NCBI GenBank assembly: GCA_964187785.1
Contig: OZ076409.1
Coordinates: 32,738,001 to 32,802,000 of the forward strand
From: Amphiscolops sp. MND2022
Lineage: Eukaryota
Reading direction: 5' to 3'
Length of the DNA: 64,000 nt
Shown here: piece by piece, positions 1-48,306 of the stretch
Position numbering within the stretch: the first letter of the stretch is position 1
How the letters are laid out: each line of letters starts with the position of its first letter
Notes under the pieces: model-generated
Databases searched by the model: none
Told to the model about the DNA's origin: nothing
What the model saw: the letters and a program-made list of their open reading frames with translations, nothing else
Translations under genes and position numbers: made by a program

Positions 1-2956
1 CCGCAAATGGTTGATGATCTCACTGGTCCACTTTTAGAAGACAACGCTGCGACGGACGGCTCATTCGCGTCAATGACAGATGCCAGTTCCGAAGCATGTT
101 CATCAGCAACATCTGGCTTGGCTTCTCCACTTTTAGTTGGTGGTTTCGGATCAACCATCTCGCCGACAGCTGGCTTGGCTTCTCCACTTTTAGCTGCTCC
201 TTTCTGAGCAAGTTTCTCTCCGACAACTGGCTTGGCTTCTCCAGTTTTAGCTGGTGGTTTCTGAGCAACTTTCTCTCCGGCAGCTGGCTTGGCTTCTCCA
301 GGTTTGGCTGGTGGTTCCGGAACAACTATCTTGCCGACAGCTGGCTTGGCTTCTCCACTTTTAGCTGTTGGTTTCTGAGCAACTTTCTCTCCGACAGCTG
401 GCTTGGCTTCTCCACTTTTAGCTGGTGGTTTCTGAGCAAGTTTCTCTCCGACAACTGGCTTGGCTTGTCCAGGTTTGGCTGGTGGTTCCGGAACAACTAT
501 CTCGCCGACAGCTGGCCTGGCTTCTCCACTTTTAGCAGGTGGTTTCTGAGCAACTTTCTCTCCGGCAGCTGGCTTGGCTTCTCCAGTTTTAGCTGGTAGT
601 TTCGGAACAACTATCTCGCCGACAGCTGGCCTGGCTTCTCCACTTTTAGCTGGTGGTTTCTGAGCAAGTTTCTCTCCGACAGCTGGCTTGGTTCCTCCAG
701 TTTTAGCAGGTGGTTTCTGAGCACCTTTCTCTCCGACAGCTGGCTTGGCTTCTCCACGTTTAGCTTGAGGTTTTGAAGTAAGTTTCTCTACGGCCGCTGG
801 CTTGGCTTCTCCAGGTTTAGCTGATGGTTCCGAAACAACTATCTCTCCGACAGCTGTTATGTCTTCTCCACTTTTAGCTGGTGGTTTTGAAGCAAGTTTC
901 TCTCCGACAGCTGGCTTGGCTTCTCCACTTTTAGCAGGTGGTTTTGAAGTAAGTTTCTCTCCGGCAGCTGGCTTGGCTTCTCCACTTTTAGCAGGTGGTT
1001 TTGAAGTAAGTTTCTCTCCGGCAGCTGGCTTGGCTTCTCCACTTTTAGCTGCTCCTTTCTGAGCAAGTTTCTCTCCGACAACTGGCTTGGCTTCTCCAGT
1101 TTTAGCTGGTGGTTTCTGAGCAACTTTCTCTCCGGCAGCTGGCTTGGCTTCTCCACTTTTAGCAGGTGGTTTCTGAGCAACTTTCTCTCCGGCAGCTGGC
1201 TTGGCTTCTCCAGTTTTAGCTGGTAGTTTCGGAACAACTATCTCGCCGACAGCTGGCTTGGCTTCTCCACTTTTAGCTGCTCCTTTCTGAGCAAGTTTCT
1301 CTCCGACAACTGGCTTGGCTTCTCCAGTTTTAGCTGGTGGTTTCTGAGCAACTTTCTCTCCGGCAGCTGGCTTGGCTTCTCCAGGTTTGGCTGGTGGTTC
1401 CGGAACAACTATCTTGCCGACAGCTGGCTTGGCTTCTCCACTTTTAGCTGTTGGTTTCTGAGCAACTTTCTCTCCGACAGCTGGCTTGGCTTCTCCACTT
1501 TTAGCTGGTGGTTTCTGAGCAAGTTTCTCTCCGACAACTGGCTTGGCTTGTCCAGGTTTGGCTGGTGGTTCCGGAACAACTATCTCGCCGACAGCTGGCC
1601 TGGCTTCTCCACTTTTAGCAGGTGGTTTCTGAGCAACTTTCTCTCCGGCAGCTGGCTTGGCTTCTCCAGTTTTAGCTGGTAGTTTCGGAACAACTATCTC
1701 GCCGACAGCTGGCCTGGCTTCTCCACTTTTAGCTGGTGGTTTCTGAGCAAGTTTCTCTCCGACAGCTGGCTTGGTTCCTCCAGTTTTAGCAGGTGGTTTC
1801 TGAGCACCTTTCTCTCCGACAGCTGGCTTGGCTTCTCCACGTTTAGCTTGAGGTTTTGAAGTAAGTTTCTCTACGGCCGCTGGCTTGGCTTCTCCAGGTT
1901 TAGCTGATGGTTCCGAAACAACTATCTCTCCGACAGCTGTTATGTCTTCTCCACTTTTAGCTGGTGGTTTTGAAGCAAGTTTCTCTCCGACAGCTGGCTT
2001 GGCTTCTCCACTTTTAGCAGGTGGTTTTGAAGTAAGTTTCTCTCCGGCAGCTGGCTTGGCTTCTCCACTTTTAGCTGATGGTTCCGAAACAACTATCTCT
2101 CCGACAGCTGTTATGTCTTCTCCACTTTTAGCTGGTGGTTTTGAAGCAAGTTTCTCTCCGACAGCTGGCTTGGCTTCTCCACTTTTAGCAGGTGGTTTTG
2201 AAGTAAGTTTCTCTCCGGCAGCTGGCTTGGCTTCTCCACTTTTAGCAGGTGGTTTTGAAGTAAGTTTCTCTCCGGCAGCTTGCTTGGCTTCTCCCCTTTT
2301 AGCTGGTGACTTCGGAGCAACTTTCTTTCCGACAGCTGGCTTGGCTTCTCCACTTTTAGTTGGTGACTTAGGAGCAACTTTCTCTCCGACAGCTGGCTTG
2401 GCTTCTCCACTTTTAGTTGGTGACATAGGAGCAACTTTCTTTGCGACAGCTGGCATGGCATCAAGTTTTTTTACGACAGCTGCCTCGGCTACTCCAAATG
2501 TAGTTGGTTGTTTTGAATCATCCTTTCCTGAGGCAGTTGCTCTGAGTGCCACCACGCATTTCGAGAAACCTTTTACTACACCGGCTGTCTGTTCCGACTT
2601 CTCATCTTCGGTTTTTGATTCGGAATCAATTTTCTGTGTAATGTTGGCTTTCGATTCTGGTTTTGACGTTTCTATTTTCTGGACCTGGTGTTTTAAAACA
2701 ACTCTACTTCTGGTCTTCGGCTTCTCTTCCTTTGTAACAGCTGATTTGTTTGTAACGTATTCTTCGCATGGCGCTTGTCCGGCTGCAGTTAACCTCATTT
2801 CATTTTCGGTAAGTGTAAGCATTTGTGCCGTTGCAACCACGAGTTCTTTTGTAGAATTTGGGTTTTCCAAATTAACTGGTGTCTCACTTTCGGGAACCGC
2901 GGTGTTTTTCCGCCACTCGGCATTTGGGAAGCCATAATCATATCGCAGCTCTTCTC
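1..2956 (-). CDS. Large 3' exon of the SET-domain gene: SET C-terminal motif, then ~40 copies of a 19-aa Pro/Ala/Lys/Glu repeat; runs off the window start
   Basis: Minus frame is open from acceptor TTTAAG| (AG at 2958-2957) to position 1. It reads (G)EELRYDYGFPNAEWRKNTAVPESETP...[PAKSGEAKPAVGEKLAQKP]n...SGPVRSSTIC. It is missing from the ORF track, probably because it has no stop in the window; the listed ORFs here are shadow frames. Confidence 0.8.
105..2460 (-). repeat. Coding 57-bp tandem repeat with a 1083-bp (19 x 57) higher-order duplication
   Basis: Unit ccagctaaaagtggagaagccaagccagctgtcggagagaaacttgctcagaaacca; variant patterns recur at offset 1083 (182 vs 1265, 802 vs 1885). Confidence 0.95.
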
Positions 2957-4997
2957 CTTAAACAAGGTTGCACGTGAATTTTTCAAGTAAAACTCATTTC
3001 TTTATCTGCGAAGAAAAACACTTGTGTTCCTTTTAAGCTTCCCCTTATTCCAATTTCTAAAACTAGATATCAATTTTCCTGTGCCCACGTAAAAAGTTTC
3101 TTGCTACCCGCTGGTGACAATATTATATTGTTGTTTTCTCCAGTTTCATTTTTTTGCGCTTCGAAATCTATCAAAATTTTTCTTTCAAAATTGAAACTAT
3201 GAAAATTTTCAAATGAGTCAAAAATATTTCTGAATTATATCAAAACTTATTCTATTTTTGGACAATGTAATTCGATTCATGTAAAACGGACTCAGTATGA
3301 TGCTGTTTCTTACTAGCAGAAGTTCGGACTGGCAGTTAGTAAAATTTGTCGTCGTGTTTTTACAGTCACAAGGTCGTACTCGCACTTGGTAGGATATGAC
3401 TGATTTTACAAGCACATGGTCGGACTTGCACTTGATTGATCATGATGTTCAAGCACCACGCGTTGCTACTGTTGTCGCTGTGACCCACCAATGTATATCT
3501 TGTAATTAAAAAAATGTCAATTTTTCGAAACCAATTTTTTGTTCAATCTAATGGCACTGGCATCCTCAGACTTGGGGGCAAATGGTTAACGAAACAATTT
3601 TCACGGATGTTTTTTCCACAATGTGATGGTTGGAAAAAATGCTAACTTGCTAAACTTTTTTCGAAGTTACAATTGTTCTAATTTTGGAACTCTTGTTGCA
3701 GAAATTCCAATGAAACATTTTCAGAGATACCAAAAGTTCTAAAACTTCCCTTGATGTTTCGTATTTCTGGCACTTTCTTAACTTATTTGTTGTTGAACTT
3801 TGTAATTTTAGGCAAAAGAGCTGCGGTATTTTGAAACGCGTTCGCACAAAGGTATATTTTTGGTAAAGTAATTGGTTGTTTTAACTTCAAAGGTTCTATC
3901 TTATGTTAGTGTTGTTAGTATTGTGGACAATCCCGCTATCGCGCGATTGTCGAGCTCATCTTTTGGGGACAGCTCGTTACAGTATATGCAAATAGATGGA
4001 TATGATGGTCCAATGCCAATAATGGAGTCGACCGTCTTTCCGCGCCAGCCCTTCGCGCCACTTCATGTCGGTTTTTGTCAAAACGGGCTGCTTGCCAAGT
4101 AATGTATTGTCTCTCCGCTTCGCTGCCTTGCTGCACATAAGTGCATACTAGGTGCATAAGAACATAGCTGATTACATTATCATAATTAGTTCATTGGTGT
4201 TTAGCACACAAACTCAATCACTTTGCTTTTTCCCTAATTCAATTTTCAACCAATCAGAAGCGTTTAATAAACGTTTTTGGCGCAATGAAAAGCTTACTAA
4301 ATTTCAACGTTTAGGGAAACGGCCAAAATTCTGGCGGTTACCAGAAAAAGTCCATTTCGAGGGATTGTTTAAAAAGATTACGTACCAAATAACAAGAGCA
4401 AATAACAAAAACAAAATTAGTTTCAAATAACATTAAATTGAAAGTAATTTCTTATAAAATAAAAATCAAACTGAATACTTGGTTGAAAAAATGAACTCAC
4501 GTAATTTTATCTGTAATTTTTAATACTTTTTTCAGTGAATCCTTCGAATTTTCTATAATGTTTTCTATAAACACTAAAACTTTCTCGTGTTTTTATTTGC
4601 TCTAATGCTATTTGGGAATTCACCGTTTGAAAACAATTTTGCTCAATGTCATGCAATTTAGAAATTATGGATAAGATTTGGGATTCATGCTAAGCCCCAT
4701 CCTGGTTTAAAGACGTCACCTGGAATCGAGAAACTTGAACACCTCTCAAATAGGGAACTTGATTTGAGCCTATCAAATTATGTACTTACTCATCCCTGGA
4801 ACTTTTGCCAAAAGTGATTGGAATATCAACGCCCTGTGTTAGTGAGTTATCCCAACTTAGATGATTATATACATTCCGTATAATGAAACAATCTGGCATC
4901 TGGAAAGCAGTGATGTCCATTTATAATAATATAAATGATTTTTCATGTGCCAGTGGAAAGAACAGAAAAAACTTATACAGCTCGTGGACTCTATTCC

Positions 4998-5430
4998 AAG
5001 CAACGCCCGGTGTTTGTGAATTTTTTCACGACTTGGTCGAACATGAACACTACTTTTCACTATCGGGTTAAAATAGCAACGCCCGGTGCTTGAATTCTAT
5101 AACGGCTTAGTCGAACATAAACACTACTACTTTTTACTACCTGGTTAAAATAGCAACGCCCGGTGATTGAATTCTATAACGACTTAGTCGAACATAAACA
5201 CTACTACTTTTTACTACCTGGTTAAAATAGCAACGCCCGGTGTTTGAATTCTATAACGACTCAGTCGAACATAAACACTACTACTTATCACTACCTGGTT
5301 AAAATAGCAACGCCCGGTGTTTGAATTTTATGGTGACTTGGTCGAACATAAACACTACTAGTTTGTGTTTTAAAATAGCAACGCCCGGTGTTTGAGCTTC
5401 ATTACCACTTGGTCGAACTTAAACATTATT
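4998..5430 (+). repeat. Tandem array, ~77-bp unit x6, core AGCAACGCCCGGTG
   Basis: Core at about 4999, 5075, 5152, 5229, 5306, 5377. Confidence 0.9.
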
Positions 5431-6560: not shown

Positions 6561-6954
6561 CTGGAAGAATAACACGAGTTGCCAGGAAGATGCAATGTGG
6601 TCTGCCCTCGTCGTCATGAACCTTTTTCATTCGACAGTTGGCGGCAACTGATTTGTCCTTGTCGTTGATAAACCTCGCCAAGCCAGAGTTCGTCTCATCG
6701 GAAGTGTCAATGAACACTGTGTCTTTTCCCTCCTGAACTTCCATCACGTAGTCAAAGTTGGCGACTTGAGTTGCTCTCCTCGGCCCCCAATAACTCAGGA
6801 GAAACTCTTGCGCTTCAAATTGCTTTTTCACGAAAAGCCCTCTTCCAGTCGTTCCATTGGCGAATTTGACGGTCTGGACAATGACACCCTCCGGATCAGA
6901 ATAGAGGAAGTCTTTCCACGATTCAGTTTTTCGCGCAGCACTACGAGTAGACAT
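6561..6954 (-). CDS. SET-domain lysine methyltransferase exon (SET8/KMT5A-like), first coding exon
   Basis: GRGLFVKKQF...FLLSYWG...FIDTSDETNSGLARFIND...NCRMKKV...PHCIFLATRVILP follows the SET8 motif order. The terminal GEELxYDYG is absent here but present at 2957-2931. An acceptor (ctcttcag) lies 6 nt before the ATG, and an Inr-like TCAGT lies near 7086. Confidence 0.85.
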
Positions 6955-7380
6955 GGTTTTCTGAAGAGCAAGAAAGGTAGGGTTTTGTCACACAGAGCAG
7001 TTCAACCAAAATTTAACATCAATAAAGCCAATGAAATATGAACTCTACATTATAATAAATAAGTAAACCTTTTAGTGTTCAACTGAAACCGTTCGATTAT
7101 GTTTTAGAATTTAGGAAGAATGAAAAAATGTGCTCAATGACAGTGTTGCTACTAGGAGAAAATTCAATCGAGAAAATCTAATACTTTAGTATTAGTGAGC
7201 CAAAAAAAACATTAGTGAGCCAAAATACTGTGATTCATTGTTTTAGCGAGAAAAAAAGAACAAAATTTTGAACCAATGTTGTCAGTTTTGAAAGCAAAGA
7301 GTTCTCAAGAAATCAATGTCAGCTTCGAATTGAAGAAAAGCCAAAGTTTTCATTGGTCTGGTCACGCTCCCATTTTCTGT

Positions 7381-10300
7381 TCAATTTTGTCGGACCCAAG
7401 ATTCTATTTCGTCCCAGTGGAAGTCCCAAGTGGATTCGCAGTACATGTAGAGGAAAATCTCCCAGGGGCTCTCGAAGGGCTCTTTTCCTTTGGGGTGTCT
7501 ACGTTGGTCAGCCTTGATGATAGCCAGCATCTTCCTCAGCTCAACTTTACTGACAGTGCTCTCTGAACGATGACGATATGACCACTCTCTGTAGAGGAAT
7601 ATGACAACCAAGGCTTCAAAGTGAGGAAATGCAAAGGAGGGTTGGAAACCTTGTTCGAGTTCCTTCTCGAAGGCCAGGGCGCTCCGATACATGTGCTTCT
7701 CCATAATGAAGTTACAGCCAAGCGCCACGCTCTCTTCCGCAGTGAACACAAAATGGATCCATTGACTGGGTAAGAACAGACAATCGCCTTTTTCTAGAAC
7801 TATCTGATGCGTTGTCACGTCCCGGTGAAAGCCGAAGAAGAATGAACTGAAACAGAGAGCATGTTGAAGAAGCAACTATTACCCCGGAATTGGTCATAGG
7901 GATCTAAAATTCACTACCGTTCGTTCATCGCGCACATAGTTGTCATATATAAAAATCGGTGGTAGATTAATACCATCGATCAATAGCAACGCTCGGTGCT
8001 GGAAAAAAAAGTGACAATTGTTGCGACCTAAATTTGAGATAAAAAAGGAACGCCCGGTGCTGGAAAAAAAGTAATTATTGCGGCTTCATATTTAAGATGA
8101 AGAAGCAACGCCGTGATGGAAAACGAGAGTGTTTTTAGGTTTCGAACGAAAAAGCAATCGATCATTGATGATTCTCCAACGTTTTAAAAATTGAAGAAAA
8201 AACCTAAAAATTACTTTTGAATTTGTACCTATTTTTCAGAACATTTATGACGCAAGCAAAGCTCCTGATCATGTGCCTTTGAATAAAGTCTCACTTACTT
8301 TCTGTTACCGCTCGCAAGCCATTCCTCAAAAAGCTTTTGATTTTCCTCGGTTGGCTCCACAACAAAGAAGTGTTTCTGGCCCTTTGCCAAAATGTAGAAA
8401 ACGGATGTGCCCGTGAAGTCCTGATGCCAGTTAGTTTGCGCTCCAGCTTCTGACATCAGCAGGTAGTCACTAATTCCTGATGTGAAATCAAATGCCAACT
8501 GGTTTTTGGGGCTCATAGAATTCTTCATGCAATGGCCAAAAGAAATGTCCGTCACTATATTGGGCAAACAAAACCGGTGGACCATCCCGCTCTTTGAATC
8601 CGCGTTGAAGTCAATCACATTCATCGGATGATATTCAGGCTCAAGGCTGCGGTCTTCATTGTGCTCAAGAAACTCCTCCAGAGTGAATTCATCTTCATTT
8701 TCTTGAATCGAAGAGAAACAGACATTAATTTTGACCTCCCCTGGAATTCCCTCTGTTACACAACGAAAAGACGTCAAGCTTTCAGCAGGAGGAGTTGCGA
8801 TACCAGGAAGTTTGTTGGTACACTGGCGTATAACAACAGGTTTTGAAGGGCTCCCGTTGCAAAACTTGGATCTAATATCGTCCACATTCAGCACATCAAA
8901 ATCATTTGTGGCAGGCGGTGCTGTTGCAAACACATGCTGCTGGAATTCCACAGAACCAACTTTGACTCCAATTGGGGGAAGCGAACTGAAGTTTGTTGAG
9001 TAAGAAGCGACGCCCTCCACGGCAGTCTCCAGCTGTTCCTCGACCGCGACTTCGGTTGTCCTCGGAGGTGTTTTTTTTAATCTTCAGCTCTCTCTTGAAC
9101 GTCAACCGCTCCAGCACCCGTAAGAGTTTCTTCGGATGAGACTTCACTTCTCTCTCCAAGCGAAGCAAGGGTTTCCAGTTTAAATTGAAGCGACTCGTCA
9201 CTTGAGAAAGGAGGGCTCTCATCCGCGAGAGATCGTCGTTCTGGGGTCTCTGGAACAAACGGTTCCAAAACTGCGCTTTGGTCGACAAGATTTGCACTTT
9301 CCTCAACTGCACCAGAGGATGTAGTGGGCTTTTGTTCCAAAAACGTGAAAGTTGTCGCCGTTTGGGAAGTACTGGTTGTGGCTGGAGCAAGATGGTACTT
9401 TTTTTTGTGCCGCGTTAGATCAAAACTTCGAGTCGTTGTCGTGCCACAAAATTCACACTCGAAGATACCTTTTTGGCGTTCTGAAACATAAGACTCGTTA
9501 TGCGAAGGAATCAAACGGAAGCCAAAAAGAATGCTACAATATTCGACTTGGTGCCAGTAAAAAAGTTGGTTATAATCGAAGTTTATCGATCAATCTTAGA
9601 TGTAATCTAGTCACTGTTCATGCGGTGCAACACCCGGTGCTGGAGAATGAGACTGTTCCTTAAAAATTGAAGAAAAAGCAACGCCCAGTGCTACAAAAAT
9701 GAGGTTAAAACAAGCGCGACACAATTCAACTAGCCACTGTCATGAATACTATATTGGTATTTATTTATATATTATTCAGGACAGGGCTTGTCAAACTATG
9801 CCAGAGACAGGTTATTCTAACATATCTCCCTGAATTTCGTTTTATGTATTCAATTAAAAAAGAAGTATCGAAACACTTTTTGACGAAAATCACTTTCTGA
9901 GTTTTTCATTGAAATCTTTTTCAGAAACACAGGATCTTTTTCTCAAAATATTGAAGAATAGTCTGTATTTTCAACCACCACTTGCAGGAAAATACAGTCC
10001 AGGTTGAAATTTAAAAACACAGCATAACAATTTCTGACAAAGACTGCATCAGACTTCATTCATTGAACTTCGTTGAATGAAGCGAGAATGTCTTGGTCCC
10101 AAAAATGTTGAACGAAGAATCGAGAAACGATATCAACTTTACTACCAGTAACAATGTTTTTCGAGTGGAGCAGAAATTAAAAAAAACCATCAAACACTCA
10201 ATTAAACTACCAGAATTCCTTCACCTGGATTCATTCAACCAAAACAAATCATTGTAACAAACTTTCAAAATGTTAAAATTTAACATGTCGAGCAGATTAG

Positions 10301-13300
10301 AACTGCACCATGTGTCTTTCAAGGAAACCATGTTGAACAAAACAAGGAAGTGCCGGCTTCGAAAAGGACCCACCCCTTACTTCCTTCAACACAATTTTCC
10401 GCGCAGGAACGGAAAAAAATGTTTAACGCGACGTATTTGATCTGAAAAGCAACTCTCCTGCTATAGTGTAGTGTTCATATAGTCCGAGCATTGCACCCAA
10501 CTAACAGAGCGTCTGAGGTTCGATGTTCATTTGAAATTCTTTATACGTACAAATGGAAAGAGTTCTACGAAGTTGTAACAATTTTATCGAAAAATTTTCT
10601 CTCCAGAACCCACTTGGTTTATTTCTTGGGAAAATCAAGAAAAAATGAAGGAAAAGAGGAAAAAATCTAACTTTTTTAGCAGAAACGATCACGCACTTGC
10701 CGTGGCGTTCATGTTCGACCTATGCTGCTGAGTTTTCAGTTGCTGAAAGGGTGAAAATCATAGTGAAAGGTCGAAAATTCTACAGGAGTTCGACCTTTGC
10801 CCCTAATTGTGATTACCACAGCACACAATGAATCTCGTGATCGCTTATCTCATTTCGTGATTTTATGTCGACAAAAATTGGGCTCGGAACCAATTGACGA
10901 GGTTCAACTTGATTGCATCGCATTTTTTTTGAGAATTCTAGCGTCAATTTGAAACTTGACACCCTAATCATTTCAAACTAGCAACGCAAGGTGCTGGTGA
11001 TTACTACATCTTTACTGTACTTTAATCTGAAAAAGAGCTAGTGAAAAAGCAGCACCCGAAACTTGAAATATGTTTGAAAAGAAAATTTTGATTAGATTTT
11101 ATTGCTGAGAAAATTTCTTTTGAAATAGGCGCCTTTAACACAAAAAGACATTTGGTCTTTTCGGACAAAAAGGTTTGAAAATTAGGGGAAAATAAAATCA
11201 CAGCAACTTTCGTAACGAGTGTTCGTAAAACTTCCGGACCGCGCGTCAGCGTTTTGCCCTTCTTTCATTTTCACATGTTACCAAGGTTTAATTTCAAACA
11301 AATTGATGTTTTTATGTAACCGAACAACCGTTCAGGAAAAGCAACGCCCGGTGCTGAAAAAAACACAATGTCAATGTGATTCCGCCTTAAAATTTATACA
11401 AAAATAGCAACGCCCGGTGCTGGAAAAGATTGGGTTTTTGCGCAGTATTGTTTTCATTTAGAAAAGCGTGGCCCTGTGCTGGAAAACTGGACTGTTATCG
11501 AGCCTTATAGTTTGAACGGAAAATGTAACGCCCGGTGCTAGAAAAACGAGTTTGTTATTGTGCCTGAAGAGTTGAACAAACATAGCAACTCCCGGTGCTG
11601 GAAATAGAAACTTTTCGCGCCTTGTTGTCACGACTCTTCAGACGGACGACTGTCTGGTGATAAGAGTCTGAGTCTACTTAAAAGAAACTTAGTTTATTCA
11701 AAGTATCAACTACGATGTAATTTGCTCTCAGAACCTATTTGTTTTCAATATTGATTTTTCAAGTTTCTATCAGGGAGGTACTAAAGGAAACATGCTCGAC
11801 GTTGATCACCTGGACATTGACCCAAGGGATATAATAGTTTTCATATATCAATCGGGACGACGTCTAGTTGAATCAGGTCAAAAAATTGCATTCGAAAGAG
11901 CAACAACTTTATCCGAACCCTTCGTGACACTTTCGTTTTGTGATTAGAAAAATGAAAAGTCCCGCGTGAAAGAAAGAAAAATGAACTGTTTACACTTGAA
12001 AACGGAAGACAAGAAAACAGATATTGCGATTCTTCTCGAGTATGATAAATAGGTTCTACGAAAGACTTCTGTAAACACATAACGTAACACTTTCTGACGA
12101 AAACTGAATCAGACTTCTTTCATTGAACTTTTTTGAATGAAGCGAGAAGGTCTTGGTCTCAAAAATGTTGAACGAGGAGTCGACAAAGGACTTCAACCAT
12201 TACTACAGGTAACAACCTATTTCGAGTAGAACAGACTCAAAAAATAAACGTAAACGCTTGTTCAAACCACCAGAATTTCTTCATGTGGTTTCATTCATCT
12301 AATGAAAAGTATTGTGACAATTTGATAAAAAGGTCGTTACAATTTCAGACTAAGACTGCACCATGTTCATTTCAGTGGAACTATATTGAAGCACACAAGT
12401 GGGTCTTGGGCTCGAAAATGTTGAAAGCGATGAATCGAGGAATCGTTCCCTCCCTTGCTCTTCCGGTAACAAAACATTCCGACCAGAACGAAACAAACAT
12501 CATTTTACGTTTGGTCTGGTTGACACATTTGGTCTGGTCGCCAATATTCCTGCTATAAGGTAGTGTTCATATATTAAGAGCATTGCGCCCAACCGTAAGA
12601 GCGTCCAAGTTTTTGTTATGTATATGATGTTCTTCACACATACAGAAGGAATGAGTTCTACCAAGTTTAAAAAAACTATCGAAATGTTTTCTATCCAGGA
12701 CTCAGTTAGGATTTTCTCTCGAAAAATTTTGAATAAAAGAAAATGGAGTAAAAACAAAATTTTTTTAAAGCAGAAACGATCATGCAACTGCAATGTCGTT
12801 CATGTTCGACCTGTGCTGCTGGGTTTTCAATTGCTAAGAGGGTGAAAATCATAGTCGAAGGTCGAACACTCTACATTTCATTTTATACAAGTTAATTTAA
12901 TTATTTTAATTTTACAAGCTTTAATTTTAAACAAACTGATGTTTATTATACACTTGGACAGCCAAGCAGAAATGCAACTCCTGGTGCTGGAAAAAAATTG
13001 GAAAAGGTATTCGGCCCCAAAATTTGAACAAAAAGCAACGCCCGGTGCTGGGAAACTAGACTGTTATTGGGCGTTAAACTTTGAACGGAAAGAGCAACTG
13101 TTGATTTTTGAAGTTTCTACAGGAAACACGCAAAACATAGATCACCTGGATATAGGACCCAAGGGATATAATGGTTTTCTTATATCACTCGGGACAACGT
13201 TTGGTTGAATCAGGTCAAAAGATTGTATTTGAAAGGGAAGCAACAATTTTTATCCCAACCTTTTGTGACACTTTCGTTTTGTGATTGGAAAATTGGCTAG

Positions 13301-16300
13301 CAAAAATATATTAAGTATATTGTCCATCTTGATACATGTATTTGAAAAAAAATCAATTTAATCAAAAATTCATTTTCTTTTGACTTGTTCAAAACACTAA
13401 AAATTTTTGTTTTATTCCATCAAGGGGGGTTCGTGTTTGAAATTAAAATACGCGTGAGAATTTCCTAACGCGTATATATATTTTTGTGTTTTAAAAAAAC
13501 AATAAGTTTGATTGAGTATTTCAAACAATAATTTGAAAATAGGTTTTTCGAAAAATCAACTGACAACACATCAATTTCATTTTTTTTCATTGTTTAGTAA
13601 AATCAAGCATTTATTGTTATTTCAGTTTGCGGGGTCAATTTGAATATTTCAAGTTTTAAGGGGACGAGAACTTCCTAAAGCTTCCTAAAACTTCCTATAC
13701 CGAACAATAATTTGAAATTAACTGTATTTCAAAAAACGAACTGAGTTATCTAATCATGAAGTAAAGTTCAACGTTCAAAAAAATCGAAGTTTTAATTTTT
13801 CAATGTTCCTGTTGGGGGGGTTTGATTATAATATTTTGTGAATGTGCATGAATTTACAAATGCGCATAACGTTTTGATTTCTGAAAGTTTAAGTCCGACT
13901 TACAGTATTCCAAGCAATAAACTAATTTCATGAATTTAATTCAAAAGAATTAGTTGTTTCAAACGTAGTTCCAGTTGGGGAGATTTGATCAAACCAATTG
14001 ATAATATTATTTTCTGCATTATATAATTCCCAACCACCTTATAATTCTCAACCACTGAGCGTTGCTATTTTAATGAACAACCAATATGAAAACATTAGCC
14101 GAAAGGATTTTGTCAGGACTACAAAAAACCGAGTTAGTGTCAAGCAGCTCTCAACACTCATTTGCAACTCAGTTATCGGTTCACCTTCAGACACATACAA
14201 TTGCGTATACTGTAACGAGCTTCCCCTAACGAATGATGAACTTGACAGCGTGATTAACCACTACACTAACTCGGTTTGAAGAGAAGCAGTTTTAACTTAA
14301 TCATGCAAGATTACGTACCAAATAGCATATAAAAGAAAATAACGAAACGAAAATAGTCCCATTCAACGAAAAAGCTAAATTAGTTTCATAAAAACATTTA
14401 AAAAAACCGAATACAGTTGAACAATTAGCTCACGAATTTTGTCTCTAATGTTGATACATTTTTAGTGAGTGTTTTGAATTGTGAATGCTTTTGACCACAA
14501 AAACTTTCTCGTAAACAATTTTATTGTTTCCTGAAAAGCATTTCATTTTTTTAATTTGAAACCTTTAGTTTATTTGCTATTATGTTAGTTCGACCTTGTG
14601 CCTGTAAAAAAGTCTCATGTCCTACCAAGTGCGGGTCCGACCTTGTGCTAGTAAAATTACGACCGCATATAGGACATTAACACAAAATGTGTTGTGCAAA
14701 AGCTGATTTCATGCTTTTCTGCTCCTTTCCTAAAAAACTATACACAAGTGTCCAGCGTCACCAGTGATGACTTTACACGAGGGGGTGCCCTCGTTCAGAA
14801 TTTAACCCTGAAAAACAGCAAAGGAAGAAACCCCCTCCTGTTTGAGGTTTTTAGCCATGTTTGGGATCAAAATTTTCAAACTTGCTGTTAGGAATAGTGG
14901 GTTGAAATTTCATTGATTGCCTTGCAAACGTTTTAAGCAGCACTAACATGCCCCCCGTTGAGAAATTTCAAACACCGCCCCTGTGCGTCACGGAAAGGAA
15001 AACAAACTACAATTGGAAACTGAAGACAAGAAATGAGATTACTCTTATTTCAAGAACGATACATAGGTTCTACGAAAGCTTCTGTAATTGAAGACCTTTT
15101 AAAAAAGGTTAATTCCCAAATAGCAAACAACATAAGTCTTGAAAACTAGACTGTTACTGCAACTTAAGATTAGAATAAAAGAACAACGCTCGGTCCTGGA
15201 AATTGAGACTATGACTGTGCCTTAAAATTCGAACAAAAAAGCAACGCCCGGTGCTAACAAACTAGACTGCTACTGCGCTTTAAGGTTCGAAGAAAAAAGC
15301 AACGCCCGGTACTGGAAATTGAGACTATGACTGTGCCTTAAAATTCGAACAAAAAAGCAACGCCCGGTGCTAACAAACTAGACTGCTACTGCGCCTTAAG
15401 ATTCGAAGAAAAAAGCAACACCCGGTACTGGAAATTGAGAATATGACTGTGCCTTGAAATTCGAACAAAAAAGCAACGCCCGGTGCAAACAAACTAGACT
15501 GTTACTGCGCCTTAAGATTCGAAGAAAAAAGCAACACCCGGTACTGGAAATTGAGACTATGACTGTGCCTTGAAATTCGAACAAAAAAGCAACGCCCGGT
15601 GCTAACAAACTAGACTGTTACTGCGCCTTAAGATTCGAAGAAAAAAGCAACGCCCGGTATTGGAAATTGAGACTATGATTGCGCCTTAAGATTCGAAGAA
15701 GAAAGCAACGCCCGGTACTGGAAATTGAGACTATGACTGTGCCTTAAAATTCGAACAAAAAAGCAACGCCCGGTGCTAACAAACTAGACTGTTACTGCGC
15801 CTTAAGATTCGAAGAAAAAAGCAACGCCCGTTTCTGGATATTGAGGCTGACTGCACCTTGAGTTTCGGGAAAAAGCAACGCCCGGTGCTGGGAATTGAGA
15901 CTGACTGCGCCTTGAGATTTGAAAAATACCTGAGCCTAGTAAAACAAGATTAAAATAAAAAATATTTATCAAAATAAAAATTGAAAAAGCAAACAACTTA
16001 CTTGGAGGCGGTGAAGGAAACTCACTGGGTGTAACTCCTTGTTCCACAGCTTCTTTTTGTCGCTTCTGACAAGTCTTTTTAGCAACATGCTGCTGCAATT
16101 TGGTCGTGCTTGCGCAAATTAACCCACATAGTTGGCAAGTGCAGCGGAAAATGCTTTGAGCTTTTCGTGTTCTTTGGCCTTAAAAACAGAATCGTGTGAA
16201 AACCTGAGAACTGATTTGGAAAACACAATCTCATGAGTTTATCAATAAATTGATGATTGATTTTTACGATCGATAAATTTTGATTGATTTTTTATCGATA

Positions 16301-17041
16301 AATTGATGATTGATGAAATAATTTTTGGACAGCCCTGCAAATGAATGATCAAGCATTCCAATTTTCAACAGAGGCTTGGACGCAAACCAAGAACCTTCAA
16401 TTTTATTTAAATCCAGGTACAATTTTTTTTCACAAGCTGTTTTTGACTGTTTTTGGTGGGGGCGGTGAGGGGGATGGTTTGTTCAATAATTTTTGTTTAC
16501 GGTGAATTCCCAGATAACACAAGAGCAAATAACATAAAAATTGAATTAGTTTCAAATAACATGAAAATAAAATTGTTTACGAGAAAGTTTGGATCTTTTG
16601 TTGATCCCCCCATTTAATTCCCCCCAGTTTTTATTACTCTATATTACTCTACCTTTTTTTAACTCTAACATCAACTGAAACTCATCTCTGTTACGGGGGG
16701 GTGGGGTTTCATAATTTTCTCTGTGGGGGAATTAACAGAAAAGATCCGAAAGTTTTAGTGTTCTAAAGCATTCACAATGCAAAAGACATTCGCTGAAAAA
16801 GTATGAGAAATACAGATAAAATTTAGTGAGTCCGATTGTTTAACCGGGTATTTGGATTTTTTTTAAACTAATTTCATTTGTACGTTTAATGGAAAGAAAT
16901 TCGCTTTTATGTTATTTGCTCTTATGTTATTTGGTACAAAATCTTTGTTTACTAACCCAGGCATCTTGATTGATGGCGACTGAACAACCACTTCTGATTG
17001 GCTTGGAATTCCTTCGCGCAGTGAGTGCAGCGTGGAGGCAT
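7381..17041 (-). CDS. Spliced gene: three C2H2/C2HC zinc fingers plus JmjC histone demethylase domain (KDM2/KDM7 type). Exons 17041-16957, 16178-16002, 9480-8299 (1-nt frameshift near 9078), 7846-7381
   Basis: All three introns are GT-AG and phase-compatible (1,1,2). Fingers: CTHC..HQSRC, CQLC..HVAKKTC, CEFC..HKKKYH. JmjC: AQTNWHQDFTGTSVFYILAKGQKHF...FLPSQWIHFVFTAEESVALGCNF, with HxD..H and the 2-oxoglutarate Lys. Confidence 0.85.
10030..12870 (+). repeat. Diverged ~0.8 kb direct repeat (about 10030-10800 and 12090-12870)
   Basis: Shared blocks such as tcagacttc..ttcattgaactt..ttgaatgaagcgagaa and gggtgaaaatcatagt. Confidence 0.75.
11335..11605 (+). repeat. Diverged ~60-bp array x5 with conserved AGCAACGCCCGGTGCTG core
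   Basis: Core at about 11340, 11406, 11465, 11523, 11584; inter-core sequence strongly diverged. Confidence 0.8.
15175..15915 (+). repeat. Tandem array, 58-bp unit x~13, two largely alternating unit types (116-bp dimer), core AGCAACGCCCGGT
   Basis: Spacers gctaacaaactagactg... and actggaaattgagactatg... mostly alternate at 58-bp spacing. Confidence 0.95.
16591..16747. mobile_element. Small MITE with GG termini and 8-bp TSD (Merlin-like)
   Basis: Ends GGATCTTTT...AAAAGATCC; GAAAGTTT on both sides (16583-16590, 16748-16755). Confidence 0.7.
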
Positions 17042-19657: not shown

Positions 19658-20010
19658 TTAAGCTGCTCTTGATAGTGGGTAAATCAGCTGCATGTAGGTC
19701 ACGGCGTCTTCCAGCGCAGGGTCAGTGTTTTCCAAGGCATGGTAGCAAAGAACTTCATAGAGTCTTATAAAACTGTGTGACTCTGGATCAATTCGCACTT
19801 GGCATTTACGGGATTTTGGCTGGGAGGGTGACACTAGACCCGAGTACTTGGAACGGTAACAAATTTTCACCGATTGGTCTGCGTAGGTCCAACGGAGTCT
19901 TGTAATGATTACGTCAACTAATCCGTTGATCTGCATCTCTTTGGGCAGAGTCCATTCGAGGTGCAAATACACTTTTTGGTACCAAAACGTTTGGATGGAA
20001 AGAGTGAATA
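19658..20010 (-). CDS. Unknown protein (probably a last exon), paralogue of 23871-24251
   Basis: KVYLHLEW..ITRLRWTY..IDPESHSFIRLYEVLCYHALENTDPALE aligns with the 23871 ORF; 5' end uncertain. Confidence 0.65.
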
Positions 20011-20894
20011 CTTGACAGAGAAAAAGAGCGTGGTTGAGATAGGCACACACACACAGGGAGAAAGAGAGAGAGAGAGAGTCGAAAACAAAACTGAACTGAC
20101 TGATTTGAAACAGCTCTGAACGAAAGAATGAGCCAGTGGAGAAACCAATTACGAGATATATAAGTGAAAAGAGAAAATGTACCGAAAAACAAAAGCCTGA
20201 TGAAGGATGTATTATTCGATAGGAAACCCTGGCAAATAACAAATAATTGCGTTTTCCTCCCTTCGAGAATGAAAGACATAAATAACAGCTTTGTTCAATA
20301 GTAGAGTATTATCAATTAGCGAATTAAGTTGCTTCATGTTAATCGAATGTAGTCGATGAAAGCACAACACCGCGTTACTCAATGATACATAAGGCTAGTC
20401 TGTTCAATTGTTCAACCTGAATCATTTGGTAATTAGGTAATCGGTAGTTGAATTTGTTGCTGGTTGGGCGACTAAAGAAAAGCATCAAACTGAATTGATG
20501 TGATAGTGCCGATACCTCTGCACTCTTGTGACGGTTTGAGGTTGAATTGGTTATTTAAATTTTTTGAGGTGGTCTAAAATCACGGATGGTGTACGAAGTC
20601 TTTGTATTACAAGTCTGATCCACATACACTAGTAACGAAAGGAATAAATTTCCGGTAAAACTGTCTCAGTATTTTGTGACCGTTTATGCCAAAAGAAACT
20701 TTTAATTTTAATTAGATGGACATTAAAGTTTGTAGATGTTTCGGATCTTGTAGGCTGGGGAAGGGGTGGCATTAGCAAGCAAGATATGATTTTTTGTCTT
20801 TTTTTAGTCATGTAAACTGTAAACAATGTGTATCGGGGGAAAACGACATGATTCGGATTTTTACAAGCATTCGATAGAATTGATGATTCGGTGT

Positions 20895-20960: not shown

Positions 20961-21034
20961 TTGATATTGGACGGTTCTATTTTAGTCTTATTCCTATTTG
21001 CTCTGTTTAAAGCACTGGTGTTAAACGAAAGACG

Positions 21035-21215
21035 TAAAAAAGCAACGCCTGATGTTTGATCGCACAGCTTATCCAGAACAAAGTGAAAAAGCAACGCCTG
21101 GTGTTTGATCGCACAGCTTATTCAGAACGAAGCAAAATAGCAACGCCTGGTTTTAATCGCACAGCTTGTTCAAAAGGAAGTAAAATAGCAACGCCAGGTG
21201 TTAATCGCACAACTT
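21035..21215 (+). repeat. Tandem array, ~49-bp unit x4, core variant AGCAACGCCTGGTG
   Basis: Core at about 21041, 21090, 21139, 21187. Confidence 0.85.
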
Positions 21216-21230
21216 GTTAAAAAATGAACG

Positions 21231-21679
21231 GGACCATGTCATCTATCCCCCCCAGGTACACTTTGTTAGGAATCCCCCCAGCACGAAAGCACATTTTGTT
21301 CTTGAATAAAAATATTTCACTACTTAGAGAATATTATACGAATGTAAATACTTAGCGGATTGTCTCTACAACTGTTGGACACTTCAGGTAAAAAAACCCT
21401 AATTTTTTGATATCATTGTCCAAAATGGCAAAAATTCACGCTTGGAACGAGATGAAATAGTATAAAAAGGCCCCTATTTCAACGCAAATTTTCTCCGTGA
21501 TGATATCTAATGAGCAACTTTTAACTGACAGTCAATGTAATGGATAGGATTATGTCGACATGAATTGTTTTATTGGATTAATATTCTAACGCAAACGATG
21601 TCGACATAATGGTATTTGAACCTTGTGACTTATTCCCCCCCCCCGCCGCAGTTTGGGGGGGAAACAGATGACATGGTCC
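21231..21679. mobile_element. MITE with GG-initiated TIRs and perfect 8-bp TSD (Merlin-like)
   Basis: GGACCATGTCATCTATCCCCCCC ... GGGGGGGAAACAGATGACATGGTCC; AATGAACG at 21223-21230 and 21680-21687; related lone end near 17745-17762. Confidence 0.9.
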
Positions 21680-22084
21680 AATGAACGATACGAACAAAAA
21701 TTGCAATTAAATCCTTCAAGAAAATACTAGGAGTTTATAATGTTCTTAACGTCATCAATATTCCAGAAAGAATGGTTCACTTTCGAAAAAGTCGCTTTTC
21801 AAGGTTATTGGGCGACAAGTTTTTTATTTTATACCTAAATACTTGAAATTTGTCAGTTTCTCACATTTGATTTAAAAAATAGTTGCAAGTAATTGCAGCT
21901 GAATGCATTCAAATCAATAAACTTTTTAATTGCCTGAATTCAAACAATTAAAACTTGAACCACTTTGATTGCAACGCCCAGTGCAATCAGCGTTGTGCAA
22001 TAAATAATTTATTTGAAAATAATTCAAAGAAATAAAAATACCAATCTTTATTCTAGTTTCGTCTTCTAGTTTTAGAATGAACGT

Positions 22085-22400
22085 ATTAAAATAGCAACGC
22101 CTGGTGCATCGCTCAGAGTTTGATTTAGAATGAACGAATTGGAATGAACGAATAAAACTAGCAACGCCCGGTGCTCGCGCAGTGTATAATTTAGAATGAA
22201 CGATTAAAAATAGCAACGTCCGGTGCTTGCGCAGTGTATAATTTAGAATGAACGATTAAAAATAGCAACGCCCGGTGCTCACGCAGTGTATAATTTAGAA
22301 TGAACGATTAAAAATAGCAACGCCCGGTGCTCACGCAGTGTATAATTTAGAATGAACGAATAAAAATAGCATTGCCCGTTGACTCGCGCAGTGTTTGATT
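22085..22400 (+). repeat. Tandem array, 52-bp unit x~6, core AGCAACGCCCGGTGCT
   Basis: Unit aaatagcaacgcccggtgctcacgcagtgtataatttagaatgaacgattaa. Confidence 0.9.
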
Positions 22401-22781
22401 TACAGTAGTTGACTTAGACGTCAATCAAAACTAATATAATGATAATCCTCAATGTATTTTTGTGAAATACTCTACAGTAGTGATAATCAGGAAGAATAAA
22501 TTCGGGCACTCATTTCCTCAAAACGGCGGGACTTTCTTATGCGAATTCGGTACTCCTATTTCCTAAATCGACACTCGAAAATAAACGAAGAAGCAATGAA
22601 ATTTTTCATTGATATTTAACGAAAACAAAAGGTAATGAAAGTGATCACAAATGTTTCAACACATATTCCAGAAATACGCGTTCGAGTTCGGGTTCTTGGT
22701 TGTTTTACAGATAAATTCAACCAGCGGCATCGTCGGCAATCGTCTTGGTTTTGAGACTATTTGTTTCTCAGCATCATCTCA

Positions 22782-23870: not shown

Positions 23871-24251
23871 ATGCCTTGCCACAAACTATATTTGAACTTA
23901 CTGTGGGTAGTTCCACAAGAGCTTGAAAACCTCGATATTGAGGTAGTTACCATCACAAAAATATATTGGACCTTCAGAGAAAGTGTCATCAGAGTTTGTT
24001 TCTATGGAATCCAATCTAACCGCTCTCATCCGCTACCCGTGAAAAAGACCCCAACGAAATTCAACATACACCTTCACCCACAGTCACAAAGTTTCAAGGA
24101 CTTGAACGAAGTGCTGGGCTACCATGCTCTGGACAACAAGGATCCACTACTGGAAGAACTGCTGAGCTTTATGTCCAGCATCAAGAAGATTTCTTTGGAA
24201 AAACTCTTTGACTCGTCTTCGGACGAATCATTCTTTGGCATGGAATTCTAA
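23871..24251 (+). CDS. Unknown 126-aa protein, paralogue of 19658-20010
   Basis: Clean ATG ORF; protein-level similarity to the 19.7 kb ORF. Confidence 0.7.
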   Translation: MPCHKLYLNLLWVVPQELENLDIEVVTITKIYWTFRESVIRVCFYGIQSNRSHPLPVKKTPTKFNIHLHPQSQSFKDLNEVLGYHALDNKDPLLEELLSFMSSIKKISLEKLFDSSSDESFFGMEF

Positions 24252-26539
24252 TTGCACGCACACATTGTATTTTTTCAATTCAAGTCGTTTCATTTATATT
24301 TTATTTTCATTTATAAAAAATATTTTATTACTGTAACAGCGATAAGTTTCAGTTGCAGTTAGAGTTATAAAATAAGTAGAGTAATATCGAGTAATAAAAA
24401 CGGGGGAATTAAATGGGGGGGATCAACAAAAGATCCAAACTTTCTCGTTGTGTGTGTATGTCCTACCAATGCTCGTATCTAACTGTTATCCTTGTATACA
24501 AACTGTCCAAGTATTAATTGTTCAAAACAAGGATGACTTTTAAAAAAGTTTTGAAACATGGATATTAGAAACATTGTAATTAGTGATTTGAATTTTTAGA
24601 TTTTCAACATTTTAAAAAAACGTCTTAATTAACACTTGAATGAATAAAAATACTTATTTTTGAGATAACTAAAACTAAGAGCGTTTGTTTCAACGAATCG
24701 TCAGCCAAATAAATTCGAAAAACAAACAAAATTGAGCTAATTTCTAGAAATACCTTTGTCAAGTACATTAAGCTACTGAGTCAAAAGGTCTAAGAGTCCT
24801 TTAAAAAAGCCCTGTCGCCGCGTTTTGGCCTGATTATGGATGGCTACTTTAAATTTTTGTTGATATTCGTTTTTCGCTGAGAATAAAAATAATAATTATA
24901 AAGCAATAGTAATATTCGGATAAAATATTGAACACCCCTGATTGTATGTATTTGGCTAAAACTGTAGCGCAGTATACGAACAAATACTCTCAAAAAAGCC
25001 TGGTTGGAGTAATCATACTGTGCGAGGAAGTGGAGAAGGGCATTGCTCTCAACACTACTGCATTATTTCCACCGTGGATGCGATTGAAACATCAACAATC
25101 ACAGTGAAATCTATTCCATGAACCATGAAGGTGGCTCCTACCGTGATTCGAACCACAATTTAACTATGCAGCTAGTGTGAGATCAATCTTTCGCGCAACC
25201 GACTACTCCAACAAGACCTTGAAGCATTCAGTAGTGTTGCAGTTCATATACCATATTTACTGCGAAGCAACGAATATATGACAACGCGGGAGTCAACAGC
25301 ATTTTGAAATAATTCTTGGTACGCCAGCTTCACGTACCTGCTCGTTGTCAGGTTTGACACGAGCTTAAAATTGTTTGAAGTGCAGTCGAATTTCACTTTC
25401 ATATTCTATACCCTCATTGAGAGGTAAAACTCATTATCGTTGGTCATTTTGAATCTCCGTTCTCCCAAGTTATGAAATTAACCATCCTCCTAGTGAAATG
25501 CAATTTTCGATGAGGGCTCTTCCCGTTAAATGTTAAAAGTCAGGTGCTAAGTGTTAAGTTAAAATGGAGCAAAACCGGTCTGAGCCAATCAAATTTCAGA
25601 AAAATGGATGGACCGGAACGAAGTCCTCACGCAAAATTGAGTTGTGAATTAAAAAGTTCATTTTTCTCTGAAGTTTTCCGTGCTTTCGTTCCGGTCCGCA
25701 TGCTTTCAGCCAATCAGATTGCAGAGAAATCGCAGTACGCTCTTTTTGAAGAGGATAAACAAAAGGATGAACAAGTAAGACAGCATAAGGACGGAAAGAT
25801 GCAAAAGGCTCAAAACAGATCGGTACCACCTAGGTTGTAAAATATTGTATTTCAATACATTTTGCATGAAATTAAACTACTTATATTTATTTTTCAAGAA
25901 AACAAATGATTTAAACTATTGTCGCTTTATTGTGCAGGAGTGCTTGAGAAAACGATTTCAGTTTCACATAACTTCATTCACTGTATTTACTTACAACCCG
26001 GATGCTCGAATTATTGTTCAAAGTCACATAGATAGTCATTATGGAAGTATCTCGCAGTACTGAAAAATCGTTCAGCTGAGTTTGACGTGTTTGATGTAAA
26101 AAATTTGAAACAATAAATTATTGTAATTGGAAAGGCCGAAAAATAAATTATTTGAATATATTTATTGCAATTATTTTCAATTATTTACTTGACACTCTTG
26201 GGTACCACTACATACCTACAATTTTTCAAGCAGTCGTGTAAACCACTGCACCAACAGAACATTCATTTGATTTTAAAGTTTGCTCTTTATTGCCTGAAGT
26301 TTTATGCTTTTTAATAAGAGCAAATTAAGAGCAAATAACATAAAAACAAAATTATTCCCATTTAACATAAAAATGAAATTAGTTTCATATAACATAAAAA
26401 ATAAATCCAAATACCCGGGTAAACAATCGAACTCACGAAAATTTATCTGTAATTCTCATACTTCTTTCAGTGAATCTCTTTTGCATTGTGAATGCTTTAG
26501 AACACTAAAACTTTCGGATCTTTCCTGTTAAATGCTAAT

Positions 26540-26995
26540 AAATAAACTAAATGAAATAGCAACGCCCGGTGCTTAGAACACTGCTATTCAATAATCTAAA
26601 TGAAATAGCAACGCCCGGTGCTTAGAACACTGCTATTAAATAATCTAAATGAAATAGCAACGCCCGGTGCTTAGAACACTGCTGTTAAATAATCTAAATG
26701 AAATAGCAACGCCCGGTGCTTAGAACACTGCTATTAAATAAACTAAATGAAATAGCAACGCTCGGTGCTTAGAACACTGCTATTAAATAATCTAAATGAA
26801 ATAGCAACGCCCGGTGCTTAGAACACTGCTATCGAATAAACTAAATGAAATAGCAACGCCTGGTGCTGAGAACACTGCTATTAAATAATCTAAATGAAAT
26901 AGCAACGCCCGGTGCTTAGAACACTGCTATCGAATAAACTAAATGAAATAGCAACGCCCGGTGCTGAGAACACTACTATTAAATAAACTAAATAA
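26540..26995 (+). repeat. Tandem array, 49-bp unit x9, core AGCAACGCCCGGTGCT
   Basis: Near-identical unit ctaaatgaaatagcaacgcccggtgcttagaacactgctattaaataat. Confidence 0.95.
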
Positions 26996-27075
26996 AAAAA
27001 TGTCGGGCTAAAAAGAAAGTTGTGATAAAAAATCACAACCTTGAAACACTGACACCCATTATCATGTATTTTTAG

Positions 27076-27153
27076 AGAGGCTCTCAGTTAGGGGATCACA
27101 TAGTGTCGCCCATAACAAGACCCACGCCGGGAACGTGGCCTCTGGAGGGTCTC
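27076..27153 (-). ncRNA. HDV-like (CPEB3-type) self-cleaving ribozyme candidate
   Basis: GAGACCC(P1) TCC AGAGGCC(P2) ACG(P3) TTCCCGG(L3) CGT GGGTCTT(P1', G1.U wobble) G [P4] CTGA(J4/2, catalytic C) GAGCCTCT(P2', one bulged A). Confidence 0.8.
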
Positions 27154-28214
27154 AAAATCTAATTTACAAAGTCTACTACGAAAATATGCTAACTACCAGA
27201 GCTTCCGGAATTTTATTTGGGATCAAACATTTCAATTAATTTAAACCAAAATCAATTAATGGACAAATGGAAACTTGCAAATTAACTATCAATTATCTCG
27301 CAATTGTTGAAGCAATAATTTCGGTATTAAGGCTTTCATCCCAAGATAGTCTATTCATCTTCAAAGATTTCGAGTTTCATTGGAAATAAACTTATCTAAA
27401 ACCGTCCATCTAAAGAACTTTTGCATTTAATTAGAGGTCAGAATCATTTTTTCCGTTTTTTCATCAAATTTTCAGTCAATAAACTACCTTTTGACCTCCC
27501 TAAAATCAATTAATTGCACCCTAATAATTGCAAATAAATAGTTGCCAGTTAATAAAACGATGAGATAATCAAAGAAGAATTGAAATGTTTTATGATGAAG
27601 GAAATTATATTCTTGAAAAGTTGATTCTGCTGTACAGTGTATTGGCGATCGAATGAATTCGATGTACGATGAGAGAAATGAAATGCTAATTATGAAGGAA
27701 ATGATGCTGCTGAAAAGATGATTCTGCTGTACAGTGCATTGGCGATCGAATGAATTAGAATGTAAGAATGAAGTACATATAAGAATGTGATTAGAATTTC
27801 GTAATTCTGTTTGCGAACCATGCCGGGACTGAACGAAATTTTGTGACGTCATCGTTAAAACGGTTAATTCTTTTTCGATTCAAAATGGTGATAAATGCAA
27901 GAAACTTTGCTAAAGCTATATAATAGAGTGTGTGCATGCATAAATCTATTGGAAGATCAATAAATTATTGCAAAAAATAATTCCATAGAAAGCTTTTGAC
28001 TTTGAATATTTTATTGGCAGAAAGCAATAAAATAATTTATCATACCATGTAAATAATTTCTCCATTTTGAGACGTTCTGTTTACTGCTATTAAATAAACT
28101 GAAGGAAAGAGCAACGACCGGTGCTGAGAACACTGCTAATAAACAGCGTCCGGTTGATATATATGATGCAAAACTCAAAAATTATATTCATATTAATTGT
28201 GCGGGGGGATCCAC

Positions 28215-45850: not shown

Positions 45851-45929
45851 GAAATAGGTAGGAGAGTAAAAGAATGTTTTTACAAACAATGTTCTTTCTA
45901 TAAACAATTACAAAACAATTGAGACAATT

Positions 45930-47580: not shown

Positions 47581-47639
47581 TTTTGAAATTGACCGTCAAC
47601 GCAAGTTTTAAAAAATGTCAATCTTTTCAAGTTTTTGAG

Positions 47640-48290: not shown

Positions 48291-48306
48291 CGTTTTTTTG
48301 TCTTTT

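Follow-up and report, generated by a model that had tools for sequence, protein, structure and literature searches.

The 64,000-nucleotide stretch of Amphiscolops sp. MND2022 DNA analysed here (contig OZ076409.1, positions 32,738,001 to 32,802,000; hereafter the window) carries on its minus strand a gene in which zinc-finger exons precede a JmjC histone-demethylase domain. The fusion of a finger with a KDM2/KDM7-type JmjC domain is real for the family to which this gene belongs, and the locus itself is best explained as a decayed copy carrying two lesions, a frameshift in the finger-JmjC gene and an altered splice donor in a neighbouring SET8-like gene. We give somewhat less than an even chance to a fuller reading of the sequence, in which the locus would be a decayed mobile element with its own chromatin kit and the finger-JmjC protein would act at the element's own motif.

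The finger-JmjC gene and its relatives

The gene was modelled as four exons, listed in the order of transcription together with the stop that interrupts them:

16957..17041, minus strand: candidate exon 1, ATG and finger 1 (C-x2-C-x14-H-x3-C), phase-1 donor, splicing predicted
16002..16178, minus strand: candidate exon 2, finger 2 (C-x2-C-x12-H-x5-C), symmetric phase 1-1, splicing predicted
8299..9480, minus strand: exon 3, finger 3 (9457-9392), acidic S/T/E linker and JmjC start with T-x-x-H-Q-D, Y and K; contains a one-base frameshift
9077..9079, minus strand: premature TAA closing the finger-3 frame
7381..7846, minus strand: exon 4, with the distal His, the GCNF Asn, a helical region at the C terminus and the stop; end-to-end alignment with the intronless relative P0001

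A sequence-only reading of this DNA had proposed these intron borders and had spliced the finger exons in phase across a large intron. Both proposals were confirmed: GT/AG ends are present at all three introns, exons 1 and 2 each end in phase 1, and they join finger 3 in frame over an intron of 6,521 nucleotides. The junction 8299/7846 was upheld by sequence comparison, as intronless relatives read through it without a break.

The spliced four-exon model measures 1,910 nucleotides, which is not a multiple of 3. The finger-3 frame closes after ERAED at the TAA 9079-9077 and the JmjC frame differs by one base; as assembled, the window copy would yield a three-finger peptide without the enzyme, the fingers remaining unlinked to JmjC. 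The earlier claim of fingers on a JmjC domain stands for sister copies, in which finger 3 and JmjC share one frame, and fails for the window copy, which stops at this TAA. The sequence-only reading had overlooked the frameshift and stop. It had also missed that the gene exists in very many copies and is linked to a SET8-like gene, and it had not noticed the oriented motif arrays described below.

A length-matched search yielded 48 clusters among 448 candidates. Exon-3 frames of 400-406 amino acids, running from finger 3 through the linker into JmjC, were found at 85-98% identity, and such frames stand at the head of clusters of 26, 16, 5 and 5 members. Finger and WHQD occurred in one frame in 40 of the 156 fetched relatives, at roughly 50-99% identity; these include groups at about 78%, 52-54% and 48-50%, the last of which lacks the intron 8299/7846. 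The linker/JmjC junction was covered, as judged by a pattern of our own, by 63 of the 156 fetched proteins: 47 read the linker frame into JmjC, 14 were off frame and 2 were unclassified. In six distant relatives identity was 52-71% for the finger, 62-82% for the catalytic core and 16-49% for the linker.

At the linker/JmjC junction the window copy is one base shorter than intact sister copies, and its JmjC part shows no differences from the intact relative P0287 (0/259). Because relatives keep the fusion in frame, the frameshift is specific to the window copy or to its assembly: either the copy itself is damaged, or the assembly is wrong next to a run of A. A second lesion, TT at the splice donor of the adjoining SET gene, favours real decay.

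The HQD...H ligands had been reported as intact, and they are: H at 8426-8424 and D at 8420-8418 are in place, as is the distal H at 7755-7753. Residues spaced like KDM2A T209, H212, D214, Y222, K229, H284 and N298, as numbered in the text available of PMC11168414, are all present, and the T/H/D/Y/K pattern was found in 98 of 120 pattern matches, of which 12 were spurious and off frame. The closest PDB matches were KDM2A, PHF8 and KDM7, and every match in the three sets compared (14, 12 and 14) came from that group, which agrees with the KDM2/KDM7-type assignment made earlier. No Pfam match to CXXC, F-box or PHD, including the N-terminal PHD finger of the KDM7/PHF8 kind, was obtained for the window exons or P0001. 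JmjN was likewise not matched, no KDM4 entry appeared among the PDB matches, and the fingers are N-terminal, so the features of the REF6/Rph1 type are missing. By domain content, the family is outside the KDM2, KDM7 and REF6/Rph1 types.

In trees the family formed a long-branch clade, with an approximately unbiased test value (p-AU) of 0.53 for grouping with CXXC proteins and 0.32 for grouping with two PHD-JmjC rows used as a KDM7-like stand-in; these were quick trees with no outgroup, two anchorless rows being dropped from the first and unplaced metagenomic rows left out of the second. The tree cannot tell a KDM2 from a KDM7 origin, and the candidate substrates accordingly include those of both. 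A pocket of the Y222 type argues against trimethyl substrates, according to the text available of PMC11168414. In the atlas, P0001 had JmjC clusters of fungal or unplaced origin as its neighbours; in one of them a C2H2 family occurs in 27% of members (score 0.86, a lead only). An AlphaFold model of P0001 from an 11-row alignment reached a predicted local distance difference test score (pLDDT) of 32 and was left unused. Ten divergent JmjC proteins (P0035, P0053, P0055, P0058, P0059, P0060, P0061, P0068, P0077 and P0095), with no other Pfam domain, group with the family on long branches; they are possibly cargo of other elements or viruses, or the grouping may reflect long-branch attraction.

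Finger 3 and a motif repeated in non-coding DNA

Finger 3 reads C-x2-C-x12-H-x4-H in the window copy and is detected weakly by Pfam (E 5e-4, below cut-off). It ends in Cys in most relatives, and the spacing of finger 2 equals that of finger 3 in the P0001/P0176 relatives. The label C2H2/C2HC given earlier fits the three finger patterns, which are present; as to type, the fingers are mostly C2HC.

Among 17 distinct finger-3 sequences, whose Cys and His columns were fixed by the search pattern, the recognition helix has Arg at -1 in 16, Asp at +3 in 13 and Arg at +6 in 16, positions +1 and +2 being variable. This combination is suggestive of a GCG-reading finger; Asp at +3 additionally reads C. 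Finger 1 of Zif268 (RSDELTR) occupies GGCGT targets, as given in the text available of PMC1920264. With the fusion and the conserved finger-3 helix, the earlier term sequence-targeted demethylase is fair for intact copies.

A 14-bp motif, AGCAACGCCCGGTG, occurs 52 times in the window with at most 2 mismatches (0.16 expected), 49 times on the plus strand. All matches lie within 3454-28123, with none beyond 28123, and none falls in an exon (0/52; 5,981 nucleotides of exons). They form 13 clusters, 10 plus and 3 minus, and include five tandem arrays (77, 58, 49, 52 and 49 bp) that share no similarity once the motif is masked. The main groups are the following:

4825..5425, plus strand: 77-bp tandem array and a single copy, 7 motif matches
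7985..13047, plus strand: motif dispersed over the two large introns of the finger-JmjC gene, 10 matches forming 4 clusters
15143..15926, plus strand: 58-bp tandem array within the 6.5-kb intron, 12 motif matches
21027..22402, plus strand: 49-bp and 52-bp tandem arrays and single copies, 10 motif matches
26533..28123, plus strand: second 49-bp array, with 9 matches; a single motif at 28110 comes last and roughly marks where the motif-rich block ends on the right

The gene strand of the motif includes GGGCGT. Of 55 matches, 50-55 retain the AACGC part of the motif, as against 46-48 for the next two bases. The fit of the GCG pattern of finger 3 to this motif core is suggestive.

A repeat of about 1 kb, present in two direct copies of 76% identity (13696-14671 and 18072-19120) and a partial inverted copy (3300-4010), accounts for two of the three motif matches on the minus strand. 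It also contains a second motif, CCAAGTGCGG, which is found again at 29465-29515. Within the 6.5-kb intron, 10012-10784 and 12072-12875 form an old 0.8-kb direct duplication (70%). A metagenome scan for two tandem motif copies gave a single locus (L001), which was rejected as a chance match: it has the look of a CRISPR array behind cas1/cas2-like genes and shows no similarity to the window.

Copy number and the neighbouring SET8-like gene

At ≥80% identity there are 32 clusters with 165 member sequences in all, a count in which one copy may be represented by several pieces. The JmjC sequences listed, at 62-100% identity, correspond to 96 distinct contig sizes, a count from which short-contig clusters and the P0001/P0026 groups are excluded. 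Identical JmjC proteins were found on 8 and on 4 contigs, and one SET protein on 19; different subfamilies occur on contigs of equal size (249702 and 492286), and many copies of the family are broken. In a comparison of two sequencing runs with 3000-15100, one contig (run X1) is colinear with 5298-12073, introns included, with 352 differing letters in three pieces; none of the pieces listed spans 9079.

A SET8/KMT5A-like gene lies 430 bp downstream of the finger-JmjC gene:

6561..6954, minus strand: first coding exon of the SET8/KMT5A-like gene; donor TT; SET motif IND for INH
1..2956, minus strand: exon 2, SET end GEELRYDYG, followed by a P/A/K-rich tail that a 57-bp tandem repeat encodes; continues past the window edge

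Its best PDB match was KMT5A (E 1e-5). The donor reads TT in the window, and a GT-compatible codon is found at this site in 17 of the 19 sister proteins that cover it. The gene family comprises 68 clusters, one of them with 101 members. Of 32 contigs bearing a SET copy at ≥83%, 18 equalled a JmjC contig in size; in a more distant SET family, used as control, this held for 3 of 57 (p 1e-7). P0193/P0194 and relatives form another SET8-like family, of about 72% identity, whose clusters of 114 and 38 members are rarely found on JmjC contigs; it reads as a sister element. KMT5A writes H4K20me1, a mark that the SET8-like partner might write by analogy.

Together with the finger-JmjC gene and the motif, these data make it probable that the locus is mobile cargo. 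We infer a large multi-copy mobile element of at least 28 kb. Two open reading frames (ORFs) of one uncharacterised family also lie in the motif block:

19661..20020, minus strand: ORF paralogous to 23871-24251 (35% identity over 105 amino acids, E 3e-22)
23871..24251, plus strand: second ORF of the same family

Neither gave a Pfam or PHROG match, a structure model from this ORF family (pLDDT 54) gave no fold match at E 0.001, and scans of IMG/VR with JmjC, SET and this ORF pair confirmed no relative.

To the right of the motif block several features of other kinds were noted. At 30253-32000 (plus strand) there are several ORFs of 84-215 amino acids, two with an HSK-F--HCSIE stretch, and no Pfam match above cut-off. 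A 2.9-kb tandem duplication (37797-40721 and 40737-43662, 99.8% identity) is either very recent or an assembly artefact. A broken ORF cluster at 44985-52735 lacks the motif and gave no Pfam or PHROG match above cut-off; its pieces presumably represent a Polinton/Maverick relic (capsid-, integrase- and polymerase-like). At 54126-56755 (plus strand) lies a host gene with several exons, which resembles amino-acid permeases (AA_permease_C, E 5e-17). Two direct repeats of 503 bp (58950-59452 and 60584-61086, 98% identity), 1.6 kb apart, are possibly like long terminal repeats, and a run of ORFs of 122-277 amino acids with no Pfam match at 61728-63873 (minus strand) is probably another repeat element.

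Proposed function, alternatives and known systems

The mechanism that we propose would operate as follows. The element would carry the C2HC-finger-JmjC gene and, directly downstream, the SET8-like gene as a chromatin kit. Intact copies would make a finger-JmjC protein of about 636 amino acids, whose fingers would bind the AGCAACGCCCGGTGCT motif in the non-coding DNA of the element, finger 3 lying on the GCG-T core. The Fe(II)/2-oxoglutarate-dependent JmjC domain could then strip mono- or dimethyl lysine from nearby nucleosomes, candidate marks being H3K9me2, K27me2 and H4K20me1 if it is KDM7-like, or H3K36me2 if it is KDM2-like. As an outcome, the copies of the element itself would stay expressible and most host genes would be spared. 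If mobile cargo is granted, self-targeting through the motif appears a little less probable than its negation. A stronger version, in which a giant, recently amplified transposon would encode a sequence-specific epigenome editor made of fingers and a captured KDM2/7-type JmjC, with a co-evolving 16-bp motif and a captured SET8-like writer, seems to us unlikely; such an element would be the catalytic equivalent, outside plants, of plant VANC.

A number of observations weigh against the proposal. For exons 1 and 2 there was no Pfam match, and a hidden Markov model of the family finger gave E 4.5 for finger 1 and 5.9 for finger 2, neither significant. Their codon scores were equalled by 17% and 7% of null windows, under a codon model so weak that a known JmjC exon scored negative when left out. 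Fingers 1 and 2 have non-canonical spacing and are separated from finger 3 by a long linker. The strand bias of the motif, when counted by cluster, is only 10/13, and a GCG-type match within a GC-rich 16-mer easily arises by chance. In the SET copies shown, the NH motif reads ND (IND vs INH), with an insertion, and given IND the enzyme may be altered. The linkage test took equal contig size as a proxy for the same contig and relied on partial member lists. The window yielded neither a transposase nor a terminal repeat or target-site duplication, the left end of the element lying outside it. Finally, an assembly error as the source of the frameshift beside the A run is possible, though we hold it doubtful.

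The main rival is mobile cargo with no self-targeting, in which a transposase or other element protein would bind the motif, as happens with subterminal repeats; the fingers would bind protein, nucleosome or RNA, and JmjC would act broadly or on non-histone substrates. The copy-number and linkage evidence fits this equally well, as does the C2HC form of finger 3 in most relatives; either of the two paralogous ORFs in the motif block could bind the motif, and the JmjC domain sits on a very long branch. However, the helix retains R-1/D+3/R+6 through about 50% divergence, and the motif is spread in internal introns over 24 kb instead of being crowded at one end. We consider this rival rather unlikely.

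It is improbable, at a level below that rival, that finger 3 alone is part of the JmjC gene, with exons 1 and 2 forming a small gene of their own or arising by chance and the start codon coming from a different short 5' exon. The Pfam, model and codon results for exons 1 and 2 all fit this arrangement, and the two exons were matched in no fetched relative, though genomic gene calls would not span the intron. On the other hand, exon 3 has no Met upstream of JmjC and requires a phase-1 upstream exon, and its acceptor signature recurs across four subfamilies. Only three such finger patterns occur in the window in all six frames, all within the finger-JmjC gene, and two appeared in just 1 of 1000 shuffles of 9481-18000, the pattern having been fitted after the exons were seen. 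The joining of exons 1 and 2 to exon 3 is, on this sequence evidence, likely.

Amplification of a host gene cluster, by segmental duplication or as an ampliconic or drive-like array with the tandem arrays as co-amplified satellite DNA, is less likely still. It would account for the lack of transposase and termini in the window, for the large spliceosomal introns and for the several copies per contig in some relatives, but not easily for the spread of copies over about 96 contigs and several subfamilies, the many contigs with identical proteins, the widespread decay and the missing canonical PHD/CXXC domains. Part of an endogenous DNA virus with captured chromatin enzymes, like the KDM4-like genes of Amoebidium giant viruses, is very improbable: intron-bearing JmjC genes have a precedent in viral insertions (PMC11244446, in the text available) and the family groups with unplaced metagenomic JmjC proteins, but IMG/VR yielded no confirmed relative of JmjC, SET or the paralogous ORFs, gene density is low, introns are multi-kb and no PHROG match reached cut-off strength.

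With KDM2, KDM7 (PHF8) and Jhd1 the family shares its best PDB matches and the residues of the cofactor and methyl-lysine pockets. It differs from them in having no CXXC, PHD, F-box or Pfam JHD match, and in its N-terminal C2HC fingers, very long branch and multi-copy state; it is predicted to be a naturally occurring demethylase guided by DNA, in a subfamily whose usual guides are CXXC or PHD domains. Plant REF6 and ELF6 are C2H2-bearing JmjC proteins, and the sequence-only reading had named them as the precedent, in a different subfamily. That precedent holds, and not for plants alone, since yeast Rph1 and Gis1 also bear C2H2 fingers (PMC8329514, in the part available). All four combine JmjC with DNA-binding zinc fingers; they are host genes of the KDM4 type that have JmjN and carry their C2H2 fingers at the C terminus, whereas the window family is KDM2/7-type, with N-terminal fingers, and repeat-borne.

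Chromatin- and DNA-modifying enzymes are known as cargo: TET/JBP in fungal DNA transposons, and SET in oomycete HarbingerS and MuDR (PMC12730594). These are other enzymes in other hosts, with no finger-motif pair described in the available text, whose main part contains no occurrence of JmjC. The KDM4-like JmjC genes in Amoebidium giant-virus insertions resemble the present family as multi-copy, intron-bearing JmjC cargo of a genomic parasite, with silencing evasion proposed; they differ, in the text available, in being KDM4-derived, JmjC only and viral in context, with no reader domain or motif (PMC11244446). Fusion of chromatin domains to transposon domains also has a precedent (bioRxiv 2021.11.30.470311, in the part available). 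A literature search, with Repbase Reports and most subscription journals outside it, gave no description of a transposon-borne finger-JmjC gene with a SET8-like neighbour.

[quoted passage not shown] Both systems combine an element-borne protein with a short motif piled up in non-coding tandem repeats, and in the window, as in the VANC case, the gene lies in a multi-copy element (contigs being equated by size). No MuDR transposase was seen in the window, and motif binding is here only predicted. VANC has no known catalytic domain and acts on plant DNA methylation, whereas the window family fuses a finger reader to a histone-demethylase domain; if the proposed function holds, finger-JmjC would work like a catalytic VANC. 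Escape of transposons from chromatin silencing is well worked out for plant VANC only, in the literature available, and its biochemical mechanism has been left open. Here reader, eraser and candidate target motif are found in one element, and subfamilies at about 85, 78 and 50% identity allow fingers and motif to be compared, so that binding specificity, substrate and co-evolution can be tested directly. If true, the proposal suggests a mobile element that unlocks its own chromatin.

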